Source: Solirubrobacteraceae bacterium (GTDB lineage Bacteria > Actinomycetota > Thermoleophilia > Solirubrobacterales > Solirubrobacteraceae). From it: a stretch of DNA of 64,000 nucleotides. The DNA is taken from assembly GCA_035508735.1 (NCBI GenBank), contig DATJMM010000008.1:9021-73020 (forward strand), in the 5' to 3' direction. This document shows positions 11,614 through 20,040 of this stretch, in pieces. Every line of letters starts with the position of its first letter. Position 1 is the first letter of the stretch. The notes beneath the pieces are model-generated. The model saw only the letters and a list, made by a program, of their open reading frames with translations, was not told the DNA's origin and did no database searches. The translations under genes were made by a program, and so were the position numbers.

Positions 11614-12654
11614 ATGAGCGCAGCAGAGCTCGGCCTTGGCGTGTCGGTGTTCCTCGCGTGCGCCGTGGAGGCGGTCGAGGCGCTGACGATCGTGCTGGCG
11701 GTAGGCGCCACGCGCGGGTACCCGTCGGCCCTGGGGGGAGCGGGCGCGGCGGCGCTGGCCCTGGCCATGGCGGTGGCCGCGCTCGGCCCCGCGATCACGC
11801 AGCTACCGATCGACGCGCTGCGCGTGGTGGTAGGCGGCCTGCTGCTGGTGTTCGGGCTGCAGTGGCTGAGCAAGGCGATCCTGCGGATGGCGGGGCTCAA
11901 GGCCAAGCACGACGAGCTCGCGGTCTACGCCAGCGAGGTCGCGGCGGCACGAGCTGCGGCCGCACAGGCGGCCGGCTTCGACGGCTACTCGTTCGCGATC
12001 GCCTTCAAGGGCGTGCTGCTGGAGGGTCTCGAGGTCGCCTTCATCGTGCTCACGTTCGGCGCGAACCAGCACCGCATCGCGCTCGCGGCGGCTGCCGCAG
12101 CCGCCGCGGTCGCGCTCGTGATCGCCCTCGGCGCAGCCGCCCGCGCACCTCTGTCGAGGGCGCCCGAGAACGCGATGAAGCTGGCCGTGGGCCTGATGTT
12201 GTGCTCGTTCGGCACGTTCTGGGGCGCCGAGGGCGCCGGCGCGCACTGGCCCGCGGGCGAGGCGGCGCTGCTCGCGATCGTCCCGGCGCTGCTCGCGCTC
12301 GCGCTCGCGCTGGGCGCACGCCCGCAGCTGTGGCGAGCTTCGCCGGAGGAACGCCGCCGCGGCCGGCGGCCCCCCCTGGGCGTACGCCGGCGCGGCCAGC
12401 GCGCTCAGTCGGGTGGCAGCCCGCGGCGGCGCCCGCATCCGCCCTCGCGCGCGTTCGCGGCGGCTCTCGCATTCGCCCTGCCTGCATGGCGGTTCGTGGC
12501 GGGCGAGGACTGGGTCGCAGCGCTGGCGGTGGCGTGCGGGCTGGCGCTGACGGCGCTCGTGGCCAGCGCCGGCGCCGCCGCCTGGTGGGCGATGCCGGTG
12601 ATGGTTGCGAGCGCGCTCACGTTGTCGATCCGCCGCAGCGCGCCGATCGTGTAG
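11614..12654 (+). CDS. COG4280-family membrane protein with a C-terminal fused small membrane domain
   Basis: FLACAVEAVEALTIVLAVG..FKGVLLEGLEVAFIV..ENAMKLAVGLMLCSFGTFW..EG, then an Arg/Pro linker and a FVAGEDW two-helix tail. Confidence 0.8.
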   Translation: MSAAELGLGVSVFLACAVEAVEALTIVLAVGATRGYPSALGGAGAAALALAMAVAALGPAITQLPIDALRVVVGGLLLVFGLQWLSKAILRMAGLKAKHDELAVYASEVAAARAAAAQAAGFDGYSFAIAFKGVLLEGLEVAFIVLTFGANQHRIALAAAAAAAAVALVIALGAAARAPLSRAPENAMKLAVGLMLCSFGTFWGAEGAGAHWPAGEAALLAIVPALLALALALGARPQLWRASPEERRRGRRPPLGVRRRGQRAQSGGSPRRRPHPPSRAFAAALAFALPAWRFVAGEDWVAALAVACGLALTALVASAGAAAWWAMPVMVASALTLSIRRSAPIV

Positions 12655-12669
12655 AACGGCTGCGCGCGC

Positions 12670-12736
12670 GGAGCGGCGCTCGTCGCCAGTGGCGCCGGCC
12701 GCTCGCTGGCGGCGTTTGCCGCCTCGGCGCCGCTCC
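12670..12736. other. GC-rich stem-loop (10-bp perfect outer stem)
   Basis: GGAGCGGCGC (12670-12679) pairs with GCGCCGCTCC (12727-12736), with inner short stems. No U-tract. Confidence 0.35.
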
Positions 12737-12755
12737 TCTACGATCTCGATTCGCG

Positions 12756-14714
12756 ATGCCGGAACCGCTTGCGCCCCGCCAGCGCTACATGCCTGGGCTC
12801 GACGGGCTGCGCGCGGTGGCGGTGCTCGCCGTCGTCGCCTATCACCTCGGGTTCTCCTGGGCCGGGGGCGGCCTGCTCGGCGTGGGAGTGTTCTTCACGC
12901 TCAGCGGCTACCTGATCAGCGACATCCTGCTGGCGCAGCTGCAGCGCGGCAGCATCCAGCTGGGGCGCTTCTGGCTGGGTCGCGCACGGCGGCTGCTGCC
13001 GGCGCTGTTCGCGATGCTCGCGATCGTGGCGATCTGGGTGGCGTTGCTCGGCCCCGCGCAGCCGGCCCAGTTCGGCGAAGCGATCGGCGCGGCGGTGCTG
13101 TACGTGGCGAACTGGCAGCTGGTCTTCCAGCACGTGTCCTACTTCGCGCGCTTCGGGCCGCTGTCGCCGCTGGGGCACCTGTGGTCGCTGGGCGTGGAGG
13201 AGCAGTTCTACGTGCTGTGGCCGCTGCTGCTGGCGATCGGCGCGAGCCTGCTGCGAGAGCGCCACACGCCCTCCGGCGTGCGCCCTCGGCTGGCGCTCGC
13301 GACGCTCCTGCTGGCAGCCGGCTCCGCGGTGGAGATGGCGCTCCTGTACAAGCCGAGCCTGGATCCCTCGCGCGTGTACTACGGAACGGACACGCGCGCC
13401 TTCGAGCTGCTGGCGGGGGCGGTGCTGGCGATGCTGTGGCCGAGCGCGCGGCTGCGCTCGGAGATCGCTCCGCGCGCGCGCTGGCTGCTTGACGGCGCGG
13501 GCGCCGCCGCCCTGCTGGCGGTGCTGGCGATGGTCTGGCGCACGGGGGAGTACACGCCGTTCCTGTACCGCGGCGGCTTCGCGGCGCTGTCGCTGGCGAG
13601 CGCTTGCGCGGTGGCGGTGCTGGTGCACCCCGGCTGCCGGCTCGGGCACGTCCTTGGCGTGGCGCCGCTGCGCTGGATCGGCGAGCGCTCCTACGGCATC
13701 TACCTGTGGCACGTGCCGATCATCGCGCTGAGCACGCCCAGCGGCGCGCACGGGGTGGACCTGGCGCGCGGCGCCGCCCAGCTGGCCGCCACGATCGCGG
13801 TGGCGACGCTGTCGTGGCGCTTCCTCGAGCAGCCGGTCCGCCACGGCGCCCTGGGGCGGATGTGGACGCGGCTGCGCGGCGCCCGCTGGCGCCCGCTGGC
13901 GGTGCCGCTGCGCGACCGCGCCACGCTCGGGATCGCAGTGGGCCTGCTGACGGCGGCGGCGGTGGCCTTGCTCGCGTGGCACCCGGAGCGCGAATCGCTC
14001 GCCTTCCCTTCGGGCGACCCGCGCAACAGCGCGCTCGTCTCGCCGGTGTCGCGCTCGTTCACGGCCGCGGCCCAGCGCGCCGCCGCGGCCGCCTCCACCC
14101 GCTCGGCCTGCCACACAGTGGTGCACATCGGCGACTCCACCTCCGAGGGCCTGGTCTCGCCGGATTACCTGCCGGACCCGGCGCAGCGCATCGAAGCGCA
14201 GTACGGCCGCGTGGGCGCGACCGACCAGCACTACGAGATCTCGGGCGCGAGGTCGATCGTGGAACGCTACGAAGACCAGCCCAACGCCTACGAAGTGGCG
14301 CAGCGCTGGAAGCGCGCCGGATATCACGGCTGCTGGGTGCTGGCGCTCGGCACCAACGACACGGCGGACGTGTACGTGGGCTCGAGCGTGGGCCGGCTGA
14401 CGCGCATCGAGCGCATGATGTCGCTGATCGGCGGCGAACCGGTGATGTGGGTGAACGTGAAGTCGCTGCTGCCGAGCGGCCCCTACGCGGAGCAGAACAT
14501 GCGCCTGTGGGACCAGGCGCTCATGCAGGCCTGCGCTAGATATCCCGACATGCGCGTGTTCGACTGGGCCGCGCTGGCGAAGGACCGCTGGTTCATCGGC
14601 GACGGCATCCACTACAACACGCCCGGCTACGCCGCGCGCAGCCGCCTGATCGCGCAGGCCCTGGCGCACGCCTTCCCCGCCTCGGGGGCGCGATCGGGCT
14701 GCGTGGTGCGCTGA
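12756..14714 (+). CDS. Acyltransferase-3 (OafA/OatA-like) with C-terminal SGNH domain
   Basis: GLDGLRAVAVLAVVAYH; GVGVFFTLSGYLI; RRLLPAL; HLWSLGVEEQFY; IGERSYGIYLWH; C-terminal IGDS..LGTND..DGIH. ATG at 12756. Confidence 0.92.
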   Translation: MPEPLAPRQRYMPGLDGLRAVAVLAVVAYHLGFSWAGGGLLGVGVFFTLSGYLISDILLAQLQRGSIQLGRFWLGRARRLLPALFAMLAIVAIWVALLGPAQPAQFGEAIGAAVLYVANWQLVFQHVSYFARFGPLSPLGHLWSLGVEEQFYVLWPLLLAIGASLLRERHTPSGVRPRLALATLLLAAGSAVEMALLYKPSLDPSRVYYGTDTRAFELLAGAVLAMLWPSARLRSEIAPRARWLLDGAGAAALLAVLAMVWRTGEYTPFLYRGGFAALSLASACAVAVLVHPGCRLGHVLGVAPLRWIGERSYGIYLWHVPIIALSTPSGAHGVDLARGAAQLAATIAVATLSWRFLEQPVRHGALGRMWTRLRGARWRPLAVPLRDRATLGIAVGLLTAAAVALLAWHPERESLAFPSGDPRNSALVSPVSRSFTAAAQRAAAAASTRSACHTVVHIGDSTSEGLVSPDYLPDPAQRIEAQYGRVGATDQHYEISGARSIVERYEDQPNAYEVAQRWKRAGYHGCWVLALGTNDTADVYVGSSVGRLTRIERMMSLIGGEPVMWVNVKSLLPSGPYAEQNMRLWDQALMQACARYPDMRVFDWAALAKDRWFIGDGIHYNTPGYAARSRLIAQALAHAFPASGARSGCVVR

Positions 14715-14776: not shown

Positions 14777-16579
14777 TCAGTCGAGCAGCAGCGCGACCAC
14801 GCGCGTGCCGCGCTCGACCTGCGGCTCGGTGGCGAGCACGGTGTTGTGGTAGAGGAAGGCCTCGGTCAGGCGCACCATCGCGTAGGCGAGGCTGCGCACG
14901 TCGGTTTTGGGCGTGAAGGCGCCGGCGCGCTGCTCTTCGAGCAGCAGCCGGCGCACCGCGGCGAGCGTGCGCGGGTGCACGTGGCCGTCGGCGGAGGTGA
15001 GGATCTCCAGCGCGGCCTGCGGCTCCTGTCGCAGGAAGATCTGCAGCGGCTGGGCGTTGACGAGGGCGCCGACGAACTGGCGGTAGACGGCGAGTATGCG
15101 GCTCACGCCGGAGTCCTCGCGGTGGTTCTCGGAGGCGGCTGCCAGCAGCGTCTCCGAGAGCGAGGCGAGCACCTCGCCGAGCAGCTGCTCGCGCTCGCCG
15201 CACCACCGCGCGAGCGTCTGCCCGGAGACGCCCAGCTGGGCGGCCAGCGCGGCCATGTCCAGGCGCCTGCCCATCAGGTAGGTCGTGCGGGCCGCGGCGA
15301 AGGCGGCCGCGGGCGTCGCCGCGAGCGGCTCGCCCGCGCCCGGGTCGCCGGCGAGCTCGCAGCGGCCGGCGGCCTGCGCGGCGAGCGAGGCGGGGGGCGG
15401 CTGCACCGCCACGCCGTCGGTGGCGCGGGACACGCACACGCGGTCGCGCCCGTCAGCCTTGGCGGCGTAGAGCGCGCGGTCGGCGGCCACCAGCAGGTCG
15501 TCGAGCTCGACGGCCGCCCCCGCTTGGGCGCACACGCCGACGCCGACCGAGATCGTCATGTCCAGGTCGGCGGGGCGCGCGAGCGCAACCGCGGCGCGCA
15601 GGCGCTCGGCGGCCGCGACGGCGGCGGCCTCGTCGCTGCCGGGCAGCAGCACGACGAACTCCTCGCCGCCGTAGCGGTAGATGTAGTCGAAGGTGCGCAG
15701 CGTGGTGCGCATAGTGTTGGCGAGCTCGCGCAGCACCTGATCGCCGATCATGTGCCCGTTGCGGTCGTTGACGTGCTTGAAGTGGTCGACGTCGCACATC
15801 AGCACCGCCACCGGCGTGTCGGTGAACCGCGCCTGCGCGATCAGCTCGCCGGCGCGGAGCGCCAGCGACTGGCGGTTGAACAGCCCGGTGAGGGGGTCGA
15901 TCGAGGCGGCCGCGCGGTGCTTGACGTCGGAGCGCATCAAAGCCGCGGAGAACAGGCCCACGCCGGCGAGCAGCGTGAGCGGCACGAGCACGCGCTGGGG
16001 GCTGGCGGCGACCTCGGCGGGGCTGACGGCGATGGTGACGGCGAGCGTGATGAGCGTGGTCCAGGTCACGCCGGCGATCACGCCACGCGCGTTGAAGCGG
16101 GCGCTGAGCGTGGCGGCGGGGATCGCCAGCCACGGCAGGAACACGCTGTCGGGGCCACCGGTGAACACGATCGAGACGCCGATCATGAGCTGCGCGAGGC
16201 ACCACGCGACCATGAAGTGGTACTCGGGCCGGCGGCTGCGCGCGCCGAGCCGGTCGGCAAGGCGGAAGCCGACCGCGGCGCCGGCGAGCGGCGCCAGCGG
16301 CCACCAGCCGATCCACGGTCCCAGCACGACCAGCGTGCCGGCGAGCAGCGCGAACACGGTGACGCGCGCGGGACGCAGGTGGTTCTCCATGTCGAGCATG
16401 CGCCGGCGCGTGGCCTCGTCGCGGCACAGCAGCGACGGTCCGCCGGCGAGCCGGTCGACCGGCACCGGCGAGGAAGCCAGCCCGGCCCAGGTCGAGCTCC
16501 TGCCATCGCCGTCGCCGCCGTCGCGCGCCGGACGCTTGACGTTTATGGCCTGTGGATGCGGAATCGTTGCGCTGCTCAC
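14777..16579 (-). CDS. Membrane diguanylate cyclase (GGEEF) fused to a QsdR/TetR-type DNA-binding domain
   Basis: About 5-6 TM helices, then DPLTGLFNR, DVDHFKHVND..GHMIGD, RTFD I-site and YGGEEF, ADRALYAAK. C-terminus RRLDMAALAAQLGVSGQTLARW..EQLLGEVL..LAYAMVRLTEAFLY. Exact start uncertain. Confidence 0.85.
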   Translation of the reverse strand: MSSATIPHPQAINVKRPARDGGDGDGRSSTWAGLASSPVPVDRLAGGPSLLCRDEATRRRMLDMENHLRPARVTVFALLAGTLVVLGPWIGWWPLAPLAGAAVGFRLADRLGARSRRPEYHFMVAWCLAQLMIGVSIVFTGGPDSVFLPWLAIPAATLSARFNARGVIAGVTWTTLITLAVTIAVSPAEVAASPQRVLVPLTLLAGVGLFSAALMRSDVKHRAAASIDPLTGLFNRQSLALRAGELIAQARFTDTPVAVLMCDVDHFKHVNDRNGHMIGDQVLRELANTMRTTLRTFDYIYRYGGEEFVVLLPGSDEAAAVAAAERLRAAVALARPADLDMTISVGVGVCAQAGAAVELDDLLVAADRALYAAKADGRDRVCVSRATDGVAVQPPPASLAAQAAGRCELAGDPGAGEPLAATPAAAFAAARTTYLMGRRLDMAALAAQLGVSGQTLARWCGEREQLLGEVLASLSETLLAAASENHREDSGVSRILAVYRQFVGALVNAQPLQIFLRQEPQAALEILTSADGHVHPRTLAAVRRLLLEEQRAGAFTPKTDVRSLAYAMVRLTEAFLYHNTVLATEPQVERGTRVVALLLD

Positions 16580-16691: not shown

Positions 16692-16719
16692 TGGACACGT
16701 TTGTATACGCACGTGTCCA
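16692..16719. promoter_or_regulatory. 9-10-9 perfect inverted repeat, candidate operator
   Basis: TGGACACGT-ttgtatacgc-ACGTGTCCA, upstream of the DGC-TetR fusion. Confidence 0.45.
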
Positions 16720-16792: not shown

Positions 16793-17632
16793 CTAGCGCG
16801 AGGCGGCGATCTCGGCCAGCGCCTGCGCGCGCTCCTCGCGGTTGAGCGAGTCCACGAACACCACCGCCATGGCGATGCCGAACACCAGGAACTCGATCAG
16901 GCACACGGAGGCGCCGGCGATCTGCTGGTCGGCGATCGCCGACAGCCCGTAGCCGCGCGGGAAGCTCACGTACAGCGGGTAGAGGGTGCTGGTCATGAAC
17001 GTCAGCGGCACGCAGATGATCGCGCTGGTGACGCGCGAGAAGCCGATGTAGGCGAGCCGGCCGAAGCCGGGGTTGCGCCGCTCGGTGGGCAGCGGCGTGA
17101 TGATCAGCCACCACAGCGCGAAGCCCGTGTAGAAGAGCGTGAAGTGCTCGAAGTTGTGCAGCAGCTGGTGCTGCGCGGTGTAGTCGAACACCGGCGGCAC
17201 CGACCACGCCAGCAGCGTGGCCGACCACACCGGCAGCGCCACCCAGGGCTTCGTGACCACGCCCCACACGCGGCCGACTGCGCCGCGGGGCGCAAAGCGC
17301 CTGAGCAGCGGCGCTGGCATCCCCAGCGGCAGCACCGGCGCGCGCAGGCCGAGGATCACCAGCGGCGGCGCGATGTCGGCCAGCAGCACGTGCTGGATCA
17401 TGTGCGCCGAGAGCAGCCAGTGCACGGCGATCGTGTTCAGGGGCGAGCCGAGCGCGATCAGGATCGTGGCCAGGCCGCTGAAGTAGAAGGCCCAGTGCCC
17501 CGCACCCACCGGCTTGCCGGTGAGCCGCTTCACCCGCCGCAGCATCGAGACGTACCAGCCGCCCGCCACCAGCAGGCCGATCCACAGCAGCGGGACGACG
17601 CTCCAGGTGCCCCATCCGGGCGCGCTGCTCAT
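16793..17632 (-). CDS. Cytochrome c oxidase assembly protein (Caa3_CtaG family)
   Basis: LLSAHMIQHVLLADIAPPL; HNFEHFTLF; DQQIAG; multiple TM helices. Confidence 0.88.
   Translation of the reverse strand: MSSAPGWGTWSVVPLLWIGLLVAGGWYVSMLRRVKRLTGKPVGAGHWAFYFSGLATILIALGSPLNTIAVHWLLSAHMIQHVLLADIAPPLVILGLRAPVLPLGMPAPLLRRFAPRGAVGRVWGVVTKPWVALPVWSATLLAWSVPPVFDYTAQHQLLHNFEHFTLFYTGFALWWLIITPLPTERRNPGFGRLAYIGFSRVTSAIICVPLTFMTSTLYPLYVSFPRGYGLSAIADQQIAGASVCLIEFLVFGIAMAVVFVDSLNREERAQALAEIAASR

Positions 17633-17751: not shown

Positions 17752-17755
<4 letters not shown>
17720..17755 (+). CDS. Putative 11-aa upstream ORF (MRAGSLTVPFG) coupled to the Cu-ATPase
   Basis: TATGCT at 17705-17710, ATG 9 nt later, and TGA (17753-17755) overlapping the ATPase ATG (ATGA). 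Confidence 0.3.

Positions 17756-20040
<2,285 letters not shown>

Follow-up and report, generated by a model that had tools for sequence, protein, structure and literature searches.

A predicted membrane diguanylate cyclase of Solirubrobacteraceae with a C-terminal QsdR-type TetR module whose DNA-contact residues appear to have lost constraint

In Rhodococcus erythropolis the qsd operon for quorum quenching is repressed by QsdR, a TetR protein that responds to lactones (PMC4640858, PMC6262395). The cavity of QsdR-type proteins is described as small and as excluding CoA-sized ligands (PMC4640858). Sensor diguanylate cyclases are well known; a search of the literature gave no description of a TetR-family module in a sensory or regulatory role on a cyclase or any other enzyme. 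[quoted passage not shown] P0001, encoded on the minus strand of the window (the whole 64,000-nucleotide stretch analysed), combines the two types of protein in the order cytoplasmic N-terminal motif, six-helix membrane domain, GGDEF domain, Ala/Pro linker and QsdR-type TetR module. Its features and the upstream repeat are as follows.

14777-16579, minus strand: whole ORF of 600 aa plus stop (P0001), fusion of a six-helix membrane domain, a GGDEF domain and a QsdR-type TetR module
16379-16435, minus strand: conserved cytoplasmic N-terminal motif SLLCRDEATRRRMLDMENH, residues 49-67, common to TetR-less TM-GGDEF paralogues
15932-16363, minus strand: six-helix membrane domain, residues 73-216, with conserved loop motifs RPEY, TGGP and RF..RG
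15428-15907, minus strand: GGDEF diguanylate cyclase domain, residues 225-384
15686-15697, minus strand: I-site RTFD, residues 295-298, R295 and D298 invariant in the family
15656-15670, minus strand: active-site motif GGEEF, residues 304-308, invariant
15314-15427, minus strand: linker rich in Ala, Pro and Gly, residues 385-422
15194-15313, minus strand: N-terminal three-helix bundle of the TetR module, once DNA-binding, residues 423-462
15203-15226, minus strand: recognition helix SGQTLARW, residues 452-459, lacking R453 and Y457
14780-15193, minus strand: QsdR-type ligand-binding and dimerisation domain (TetR_C_36), residues 463-600
16692-16719, no strand assigned: perfect inverted repeat with 9-bp arms, TGGACACGT-N10-ACGTGTCCA

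P0001 is a single reading frame without an internal stop. It starts with GTG, and this start is backed by a close homologue that begins MSSLT. The window DNA is about 73% GC, chance long ORFs are frequent in it, and many of its ORFs are spurious. The domain E-values and about 60 homologous clusters mark the frame of P0001 as genuine, and 14777-16579 is a real, conserved soil-actinobacterial gene, predicted to encode a membrane c-di-GMP synthase with a C-terminal TetR module. The earlier note had described one stop-free ORF with five or six TM helices, a GGEEF with RTFD five residues before it, an Ala/Pro linker and a complete TetR module of the QsdR type. The architecture stands on all of these points, with the number of helices settled at six. 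In NCBI the fused proteins are named 'QsdR family transcriptional regulator', a label that probably misstates their function and that the present finding corrects.

The membrane domain has an N-in/C-in topology, with six helices both by hydropathy and in the AF2 model and with the Lys/Arg-rich loops on the cytoplasmic side. Pfam and NCBIfam gave no match to the first 225 aa, even at E<=10, and the AdrA equivalog scores 100.5 bits, below its cut-off of 402, which places P0001 outside the MASE2/AdrA type. By sequence comparison, the six-helix domain is assigned to no described family, MASE2 and the other MASE domains included. The N-terminal SLLCxDE motif was considered as a place where the TetR module might dock, and C52 as a fusion-specific redox or metal ligand. 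Both were rejected because they also occur in the TetR-less paralogues.

The GGDEF domain is matched by Pfam GGDEF at residues 225-380 (E 3e-40), with 138 bits for PF00990 (cut-off 23.8) and 154 bits for TIGR00254 (cut-off 37.4). In direct translation R295-T-F-D298 is followed by YIYRY and then G304, so that the RxxD lies exactly five residues upstream of GGEEF. The invariant columns among 25 aligned family members are D263, D265, N271, D280, R295, D298, GGEEF 304-308, K374 and R378. From PleD and WspR we take D263, D265, N271, D280, K374 and R378 to serve in binding metal, guanine or phosphate. Foldseek aligns the domain with GcbC, DosC and V. cholerae GGEEF domains at a TM of 0.80-0.88. With motifs and residues intact across the family, the cyclase is expected to be catalytically competent and inhibitable by its product. 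Conserved, fusion-specific positions on the GGDEF surface were considered as a map of the interface and rejected as too weak, as they amount to only A318, A322, P336, A365 and R368.

Of the 38 linker residues, 11 are Ala, 5 are Gly and 5 are Pro. The linker holds a conserved short helix at about residues 399-410, and P395, S398, A400 and A401 are near-invariant. Its length of about 40 residues varies among relatives, and P0038 has a 20-aa insert, which argues against rigid mechanical coupling. The AF2 model of the cytoplasmic half of P0001 has a pTM of 0.70, with pLDDT of 74-94 in the linker, and hints indirectly at a fixed mutual arrangement of the GGDEF and TetR domains.

The TetR module is complete. 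TetR_C_36 matches residues 490-599 (E 7e-30; PF18598, 103.6 bits, cut-off 33.7), and the sequence match to QsdR (PDB 4ZA6, residues 11-181, E 1.3e-14) spans the whole module including the HTH. The fold also matches 4ZA6 (Foldseek TM 0.87, RMSD 1.8 Å, 177 columns), and pLDDT across the module is about 90-97. The three-helix bundle retains its structural core in F427, A430, L445, A446, L449, W459 and G461. Pfam TetR_N is absent from P0001 at E<=1; this was dropped as a sign of HTH loss because true stand-alone members of the QsdR type frequently lack the hit as well, or only just attain it.

With pocket positions transferred from QsdR (PMC4640858), the conserved residues that line the pocket are Y499, F502, L512, L527, V534, H535, V569, E573, L576 and Y577. 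Polar residues are kept or newly fixed in the fused set (Y499 96%, H535 80%, E573 98%, Y577 96%, Q/H513 97%). Mean entropy in the fused set is 0.97 in the pocket vs 1.19 in the rest of the ligand-binding domain, a slight difference that leaves ligand binding unproven over a purely structural role. The best-conserved stretches of the fused module are the alpha7-alpha8 loop (LTSxxGHVHP) and alpha9 (LAYAIVRLAEAFLYND), which coincide with dimer-interface elements of QsdR (PMC4640858). The hinge motif WCGxRxxLLGE is almost invariant in the fused proteins. C460 of this motif was rejected as a fusion-specific redox or metal ligand, since it is already present in the sister stand-alone TetRs.

The recognition helix of P0001 reads GVSGQTLARW, as had been noted, and 113 stand-alone relatives give the consensus GVSRxTLYRW. 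The contact residues of TetR repressors in this subfamily are R-x-T-x-Y/F/H-R, and those of P0001 are G-x-T-x-A-R: T455 and R458 are retained along with W459, and R453 and Y457 are lost. Stand-alone relatives were sought by an exhaustive HMMER search, and 113 of them were compared with 55 fused proteins, neither set being phylogenetically independent. Position 453 is R in 12% of the fused and 96% of the stand-alone proteins, and 455 is T in 60% and 97%, respectively. Position 457 is E, A or Q in the fused set vs Y, F or H in 93% of the stand-alone set, and 458 is D or E in 57% of the former vs R in 93% of the latter. Among these non-independent sequences, contact-position entropy is 1.35-3.1 in the fused and 0.2-1.5 in the stand-alone proteins, and the mean net charge of the helix is -0.93 vs +1.99. 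The four contact positions are the most variable of the module in the 55 fused proteins, whereas the rest of the module is less variable in this set than in the stand-alone one (entropy about 1.0-1.2 vs 2.2-2.5). These comparisons show that the DNA-contact residues lost constraint, as read from sequence, after the fusion. P0001 is among the least decayed fused proteins (helix charge +1, DNA-binding region net +3) and sits in an early-branching, less decayed subclade with 62-69% overall identity. In this subclade position 453 is G, S, A or R, 457 is A, F, Y, Q, S, E or N, and 458 is R, K, S or G; SSATLYRW persists in the relatives P0003 and P0008. A 38-member subclade of fused proteins has acidic recognition helices.

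About 57 near-full-length fused relatives (clusters) have both domains in common at 52-69% identity, and stem from uncultured Solirubrobacteraceae. The fusion is rare, being present in at least two of 401 genomes of the family, and the copy in the same genus is not syntenic. In the tree the fused TetR modules group together as a single clade (UFB/aLRT 100/100) nested in a grade of stand-alone TetRs, all of which have SR(A/P)TLYRW and lie in classical TetR contexts. The phylogeny thus shows a TetR module that was apparently gained in a single fusion, the partner being a TetR gene of the canonical, DNA-binding kind, with the decay of the HTH coming afterwards. A precursor arrangement, with a TM-GGDEF gene adjoining a QsdR-like gene, was not seen in 40 genomes of relatives.

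The preferred reading, with a probability of roughly 0.6, is that P0001 is a product-inhibited membrane cyclase in which an ex-repressor TetR module now acts as a ligand-sensing, dimerising regulatory domain. The earlier note had leaned towards such a repurposing over DNA binding, and the comparison with relatives bears this out: the contacts are near-fixed in the stand-alone proteins and unconstrained, often acidic, in the fused ones, the pocket and dimer helices are conserved, and phylogeny puts the decay after a single fusion. The TetR module would still dimerise and take a small amphiphilic ligand into its pocket. The resulting shift of the former DNA-binding lobes may travel through the conserved linker helix or through direct GGDEF-TetR contact, and would decide whether the two GGDEF domains of the dimer meet productively, setting the c-di-GMP output. 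The six-helix domain may add a second input, from the membrane, and be the first point of dimerisation.

A fused frame could also be produced by a sequencing or assembly error that joins adjacent genes, or by a recently lost stop. Apart from the high-GC context, which yields long spurious ORFs, nothing was found for such an artefact. The fusion is continuous in the 57 or so clusters, which come from many independent assemblies and include contigs of 2-3 Mb, the linker itself carries conserved residues, and no relative has separate adjacent genes. This explanation was rejected, and its probability is negligible. The earlier note would have been undone by orthologues consisting of two genes or by a C-terminus without a TetR fold; the orthologues are single fused genes and the fold is complete. 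A bifunctional protein, a membrane-tethered one-component system that makes c-di-GMP and represses a promoter in the manner of ToxR, at least in the early-branching subclade, is improbable. It would suit the retained T455, R458 and W459, the net charge of +3, the SSATLYRW helices of P0003 and P0008, and a linker long and flexible enough to bring the module to DNA. It would also suit the 9-bp inverted repeat, 113 nt upstream of the P0001 start and 73 nt downstream of the stop of a ctaG-like gene. This palindrome, proposed earlier as an EMSA target, is real, but it occurs only once in the genome and does not recur upstream of orthologues, and so has no support as an autoregulatory operator; its RNA fold is no better than that of shuffles (z -0.85). 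P0001 moreover lacks the R453 and Y457 of the stand-alone proteins, positions 453, 457 and 458 vary freely within its own subclade with no recognition code maintained, and the helices of the 38-member subclade are acidic. Like ToxR and CadC, P0001 has a membrane anchor, but its DNA-contact residues are not conserved as those of a tethered regulator under purifying selection would be. No neighbouring gene is conserved as a target, as the contexts differ in all orthologues examined, for which reason the copper genes and ctaG next to P0001 were rejected as a clue to the signal. P0001 is thus unlike a small soluble repressor, being a 600-aa membrane protein with differing neighbourhoods and an unconserved palindrome. 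Residual weak DNA binding by P0001 is possible, given the +1 charge of the helix and the T455, R458 and W459 that it keeps.

The TetR module may instead act independently of any ligand, only as a constitutive dimeriser, a scaffold or a domain for partner binding that steadies the cyclase dimer or brings in another protein. This is unlikely, though less so than promoter repression. Conservation is highest in the helices of the dimer interface, the pocket is only marginally more conserved than the remainder of its domain, no metabolic neighbour points to a ligand, and TetR-less paralogues with the same TM-GGDEF core exist and are presumably functional. However, a mere dimeriser needs none of the buried polar residues that are kept or newly fixed in the pocket (Y499, H535, E573, Y577 and Q/H513), nor does it account for the almost invariant hinge between pocket and DNA-binding domain. 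Some actinobacterial TetR-family regulators are reported to bind cyclic dinucleotides, and the module is tethered beside the site of synthesis, so that it might sense c-di-GMP or a similar nucleotide messenger, as an extra layer of feedback or a local effector. This is very improbable: the analysis of P0001 gave no sequence evidence for it, the canonical RxxD I-site already provides product feedback, and the small QsdR-type cavity has no room for CoA-sized ligands (PMC4640858). A more detailed form of the preferred reading is tentative and falls somewhat short of an even chance. In it, the TetR fold has been exapted as the allosteric sensor of the enzyme, and the docked GGDEF domain reads ligand movement through a fixed interface of GGDEF, linker helix and TetR, giving a small-molecule-gated c-di-GMP switch. 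The family would still display the stages of HTH decay that followed the fusion, from the near-canonical SSATLYRW through SGQTLARW to the acidic PAERLDDW.

If the preferred reading is true, the largest bacterial family of small-molecule-binding repressors joins the input domains for c-di-GMP, and the TetR allosteric mechanism drives an output other than release of DNA. The fused clade would show, in natural stages, how a DNA-binding domain decays after fusion and takes on a structural or regulatory role, with the canonical stand-alone sisters as controls. It would also suggest a design principle for ligand-gated enzymes drawn from the very large repertoire of TetR pockets.

QsdR (4ZA6) resembles the module in the fold throughout, in the conserved helices of the dimer interface, in the hinge glycine (G45 in QsdR, G461 in P0001) and in five cavity positions (Y18/Y434, V151/V569, D155/E573, L158/L576 and Y159/Y577). 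The two are only about 28% identical, and QsdR is a free repressor of about 190 aa whereas the module is the C-terminal domain of a membrane enzyme. R37 and Y41 of the QsdR recognition helix are G453 and A457 in P0001, R96, a predicted lactone contact, is Q513, and the P0001 gene has no qsdA or qsdC neighbours. The direct sister lineages of the module are the Solirubrobacterales stand-alone TetRs of the QsdR type (P0124-P0130, P0125 above all), at 50-58% identity to it and with the same 'TPAxAF' lead-in to helix 1 and a WCG/WTG hinge. They differ in being soluble proteins of 190-220 aa with the canonical SR(A/P)TLYRW helix, encoded in classical contexts with an MFS transporter or methyltransferase gene in divergent orientation.

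TetR-less TM-GGDEF paralogues (P0060-P0120) occur several per genome in Solirubrobacterales. At about 45% identity they have the same N-terminal motif, six-helix domain (RPEY, GGP, RF..RG) and GGDEF domain, but they end near P0001 residues 384-402 (approximate), without the TetR module. PleD, WspR, DgcZ, GcbC and SadC resemble P0001 in the GGDEF fold (TM 0.8-0.88 on isolated domains) and in a GGEEF with RxxD five residues upstream. By analogy with sensor cyclases that have an I-site, the activity of P0001 is expected to need dimerisation controlled by accessory domains. The known regulators of such cyclases are N-terminal REC, CZB, PAS, GAF, CHASE and MASE domains, whereas P0001 has a six-helix membrane module and a C-terminal TetR.

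P0001, the fused protein of the window, is encoded by a single open frame in which both the GGDEF and the TetR_C_36 domains are recognized. Its elements are as follows.

14777-16579, minus strand: ORF of P0001, open for 600 codons, GTG start
Residues 225-380: GGDEF domain (Pfam, E 3e-40)
Residues 295-298: I-site RTFD, five residues upstream of GGEEF (direct translation)
Residues 304-308: GGEEF (direct translation)
Residues 385-422: Ala/Gly/Pro-rich linker of 38 residues (direct translation)
Residues 452-459: recognition helix SGQTLARW (direct translation)
Residues 490-599: TetR_C_36 (Pfam, E 7e-30)

NCBIfam also matches the cyclase part (TIGR00254, E 2e-45) and gives a weak TetR-type match in the HTH region. 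The earlier note had read from the sequence a stop-free ORF with five to six membrane helices, an intact GGEEF and I-site, an Ala/Pro linker, an HTH with SGQTLARW and a complete QsdR-type TetR module, and all of these were recovered. Residues 420-600 align with QsdR, the lactone-responsive repressor of Rhodococcus erythropolis (PDB 4ZA6), over the full length including the HTH (E 1.3e-14). The AF2 model of P0001 (mean pLDDT 76.7, TetR part 90-95) superposes on 4ZA6 with a TM score of 0.87 and an RMSD of 1.8 Å over 177 columns, so a complete QsdR-type TetR makes up the C-terminus, and the lack of a TetR fold that the note had named as grounds for refutation does not hold. The GGDEF part of the model resembles active cyclase domains (TM 0.80-0.88).

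By hydropathy and in the AF2 model, the stretch from residue 73 to residue 216 contains six membrane helices. Since Lys and Arg cluster at the N-terminal end and in loops 109-121, 159-166 and 215-228, the topology is predicted to be N-in/C-in, and the GGDEF and TetR parts therefore to lie in the cytoplasm. Neither Pfam nor NCBIfam has a family that matches the first 225 residues, even at E<=10. The N-terminal motif S[LW]LCxDE..RxRLLDME, with C52, was considered as fusion-specific and rejected; it belongs to the TM-GGDEF core and, like the membrane-loop motifs, is found in TetR-less paralogues. This motif and the six-helix domain (RPEY, TGGP, RF..RG; residues 49-216, window 15932-16435) constitute an undescribed membrane module. 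It heads many Solirubrobacterales GGDEF proteins, with several paralogues per genome, including contigs C55 and C30 of the window's genome, relatives, and tandem arrays in another genome, G010 (contigs C78, C183, C267 and C374).

A search of 5.8 billion proteins found the same combination of GGDEF and TetR_C_36 in about 57 clusters of near-full-length proteins (520-640 aa, 52-69% identity), along with TetR-less TM-GGDEF relatives of 330-420 aa; the contigs of some fused homologues are 2-3 Mb long. An alignment of 25 sequences shows R295/D298 and the catalytic residues to be invariant, in a set that includes D263, D265, N271, D280, GGEEF, K374 and R378, and linker residues P395, S398, A400 and A401 are nearly so. 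The presence of the fusion in orthologues, which had been proposed as a check, is thus borne out. Named carriers are soil MAGs of uncultured Solirubrobacteraceae (Thermoleophilia, Actinomycetota). The fusion is absent from all 40 close relatives, which have TetR-less paralogues (~45% identity) and separate QsdR-like genes of ~200 aa. Within the GTDB family only 2 of 401 genomes carry it, and among 401 sampled from the class only 1 does. A second copy in the same genus (genome G794, 65% identity) is not syntenic with the window. The neighbourhoods of three other orthologues have nothing in common, and in each the fused gene looks monocistronic. The fusion is genuine and old; it is also rare, and its distribution is patchy. 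On the contig of the closest orthologue (L015, 3854-8342), the fused gene directly follows a GGDEF-HD-GYP gene and precedes one for a cNMP-binding protein, a local second-messenger cluster with no counterpart in the window.

An exhaustive HMMER search with the TetR module alone gave 797 relatives, almost all stand-alone proteins of ~200 aa. Among them are two of unusual architecture: in P0200 (421 aa) a QsdR-like TetR is joined N-terminally to an enoyl-CoA hydratase (ECH_1), and in the tandem protein P0240 (443 aa) a second QsdR-type module comes after TetR_N. The window's genome also encodes a stand-alone 201-aa QsdR-type TetR with the near-canonical HTH LARATMHRW (contig C1, locus L001 1477-2082, minus strand); a gene for an Fe/Mn superoxide dismutase lies next to it in divergent orientation.

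HTH residues in 55 aligned fused modules and 113 stand-alone proteins (P0001 numbering).
Position 439: stand-alone R 84%; fused P/R/A
Position 453: stand-alone R 96%; fused P/L/S/R (R 12%)
Position 455: stand-alone T 97%; fused T 60%, R 32%
Position 457: stand-alone Y/F/H 93%; fused E/A/Q/H
Position 458: stand-alone R 93%; fused D 32%, E 25%

Entropy at 453, 455, 457 and 458 is 0.2-1.5 bits in stand-alone proteins and 1.35-3.1 bits in fused ones (0.90 and 2.31 at 439), whereas the fused ligand-binding domain is the less diverse (mean about 1.0-1.2 versus 2.2-2.5 bits). It is thus precisely at the DNA-contact positions that the constraint pattern reverses. The four positions correspond to R37, T39, Y41 and R42 of QsdR, and to those at which helix 3 touches bases and phosphates in TetR-operator complexes. 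The mean net charge of the recognition helix is -0.93 in fused modules and +1.99 in stand-alone proteins. The central finding is that the HTH of the fused modules lost its DNA-reading residues after fusion. The structural positions F427, A430, L445, A446, L449, W459, G461 (hinge G45 of QsdR), R463 and L466 are kept. The 'WCG' cysteine C460 was rejected as a special feature of the fusion, being inherited from stand-alone ancestors.

In a tree that includes the closest stand-alone proteins, the fused modules group in a single clade (UFB/SH-aLRT 100/100) nested inside a grade of these TetRs, with P0125 as sister (96/88), and a quick tree agrees. The closest stand-alone proteins, P0124-P0130, have 50-58% identity to the module, come from genuinely separate genes in surroundings typical of TetRs, and all read SR(A/P)TLYRW. 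The nesting and this uniform helix support the view that a canonical DNA-binding TetR was fused once and that decay came afterwards. Fused lineages show this decay to different degrees: those that branch early, including that of the window, read SSATLYRW, SGQTLARW or SRATLQSW, and the crown group of 38 members reads VSEERLHDW, VPAERLDDW and similar. P0001 is therefore an intermediate: it branches early and has lost R453 and Y457, as had been claimed for the HTH Arg and Tyr, but retains T455 and R458.

The 21 reported cavity residues of QsdR (PMC4640858) were transferred onto the fused module. These positions are well conserved (mean entropy 0.97), among them Y499 (96%), F502 (81%), L512 (98%), L527 (92%), V534 (98%), H535 (80%), V569 (98%), E573 (98%), L576 (98%) and Y577 (96%). 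In fused modules Q or H replaces QsdR R96, the residue put forward as the contact for the lactone carbonyl (PMC6262395), and the ligand may be something other than a lactone. Conservation is highest in LTSxxGHVHP (alpha7-alpha8 loop) and LAYAIVRLAEAFLYND (alpha9 and the loop after it), which coincide with dimer-interface elements of QsdR (PMC4640858). In an AF2 model of the cytoplasmic half (residues 225-600, 50-sequence alignment; mean pLDDT 89.9), the linker has pLDDT 74-94 and a helix at 399-410. The pTM of 0.70, for one domain of about 160 residues and another of about 180, hints at a defined mutual arrangement of the GGDEF and TetR domains.

The surroundings of the gene include the following.

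11658-14714, plus strand: Acyl_transf_3 and GDSL/SGNH protein, OafA-like O-acetyltransferase architecture
16692-16719: perfect 9-bp inverted repeat TGGACACGT-N10-ACGTGTCCA, in a stretch of higher AT content, after the ctaG-like stop and ahead of the cyclase start
16793-17632, minus strand: Caa3_CtaG-like membrane protein
17752-20040, plus strand: copper-type P1B ATPase (HMA, E1-E2 and HAD domains), divergent from the ctaG-like gene

The ~350-aa Arg/Gly-rich N-terminal extension of the first ORF is probably a high-GC artefact, and the true start probably lies near 12.7 kb. The copper-handling locus lies directly upstream of the cyclase, a linkage not kept in orthologues. The repeat, put forward earlier for DNA-binding assays, is perfect, but it is single copy in the 3.2-Mb genome and was not found upstream of orthologues. 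As RNA it is no more stable than shuffles. It may be the site of another regulator or the end of the ctaG-like transcript.

With the contact residues lost and the pocket kept, the reading preferred by the earlier note, a TetR ligand pocket repurposed on a cyclase, is favoured. P0001 would be a membrane-anchored, product-inhibited diguanylate cyclase in which an ex-repressor has become the cytoplasmic ligand-sensing and dimerising regulatory domain (probability roughly 0.6). The conserved interface elements would also suit a ligand-independent dimeriser or scaffold, which we consider rather unlikely given the conserved pocket. A bifunctional membrane-tethered regulator is more doubtful still, and owes its weight mainly to the only half-decayed recognition helix of P0001; the helices of the crown group and their negative charge speak against it. 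It is very improbable that the module is a nucleotide receptor, and an artefactual fusion can practically be dismissed with the architecture shared by so many clusters.

In full-text literature searches, no paper combined GGDEF with TetR/QsdR in a single protein or mentioned TetR_C_36 by name. Automatic database labels call the fused family 'diguanylate cyclase' or 'QsdR family transcriptional regulator'. Sensor cyclases are already known, and an exapted TetR input domain on one would be unprecedented.
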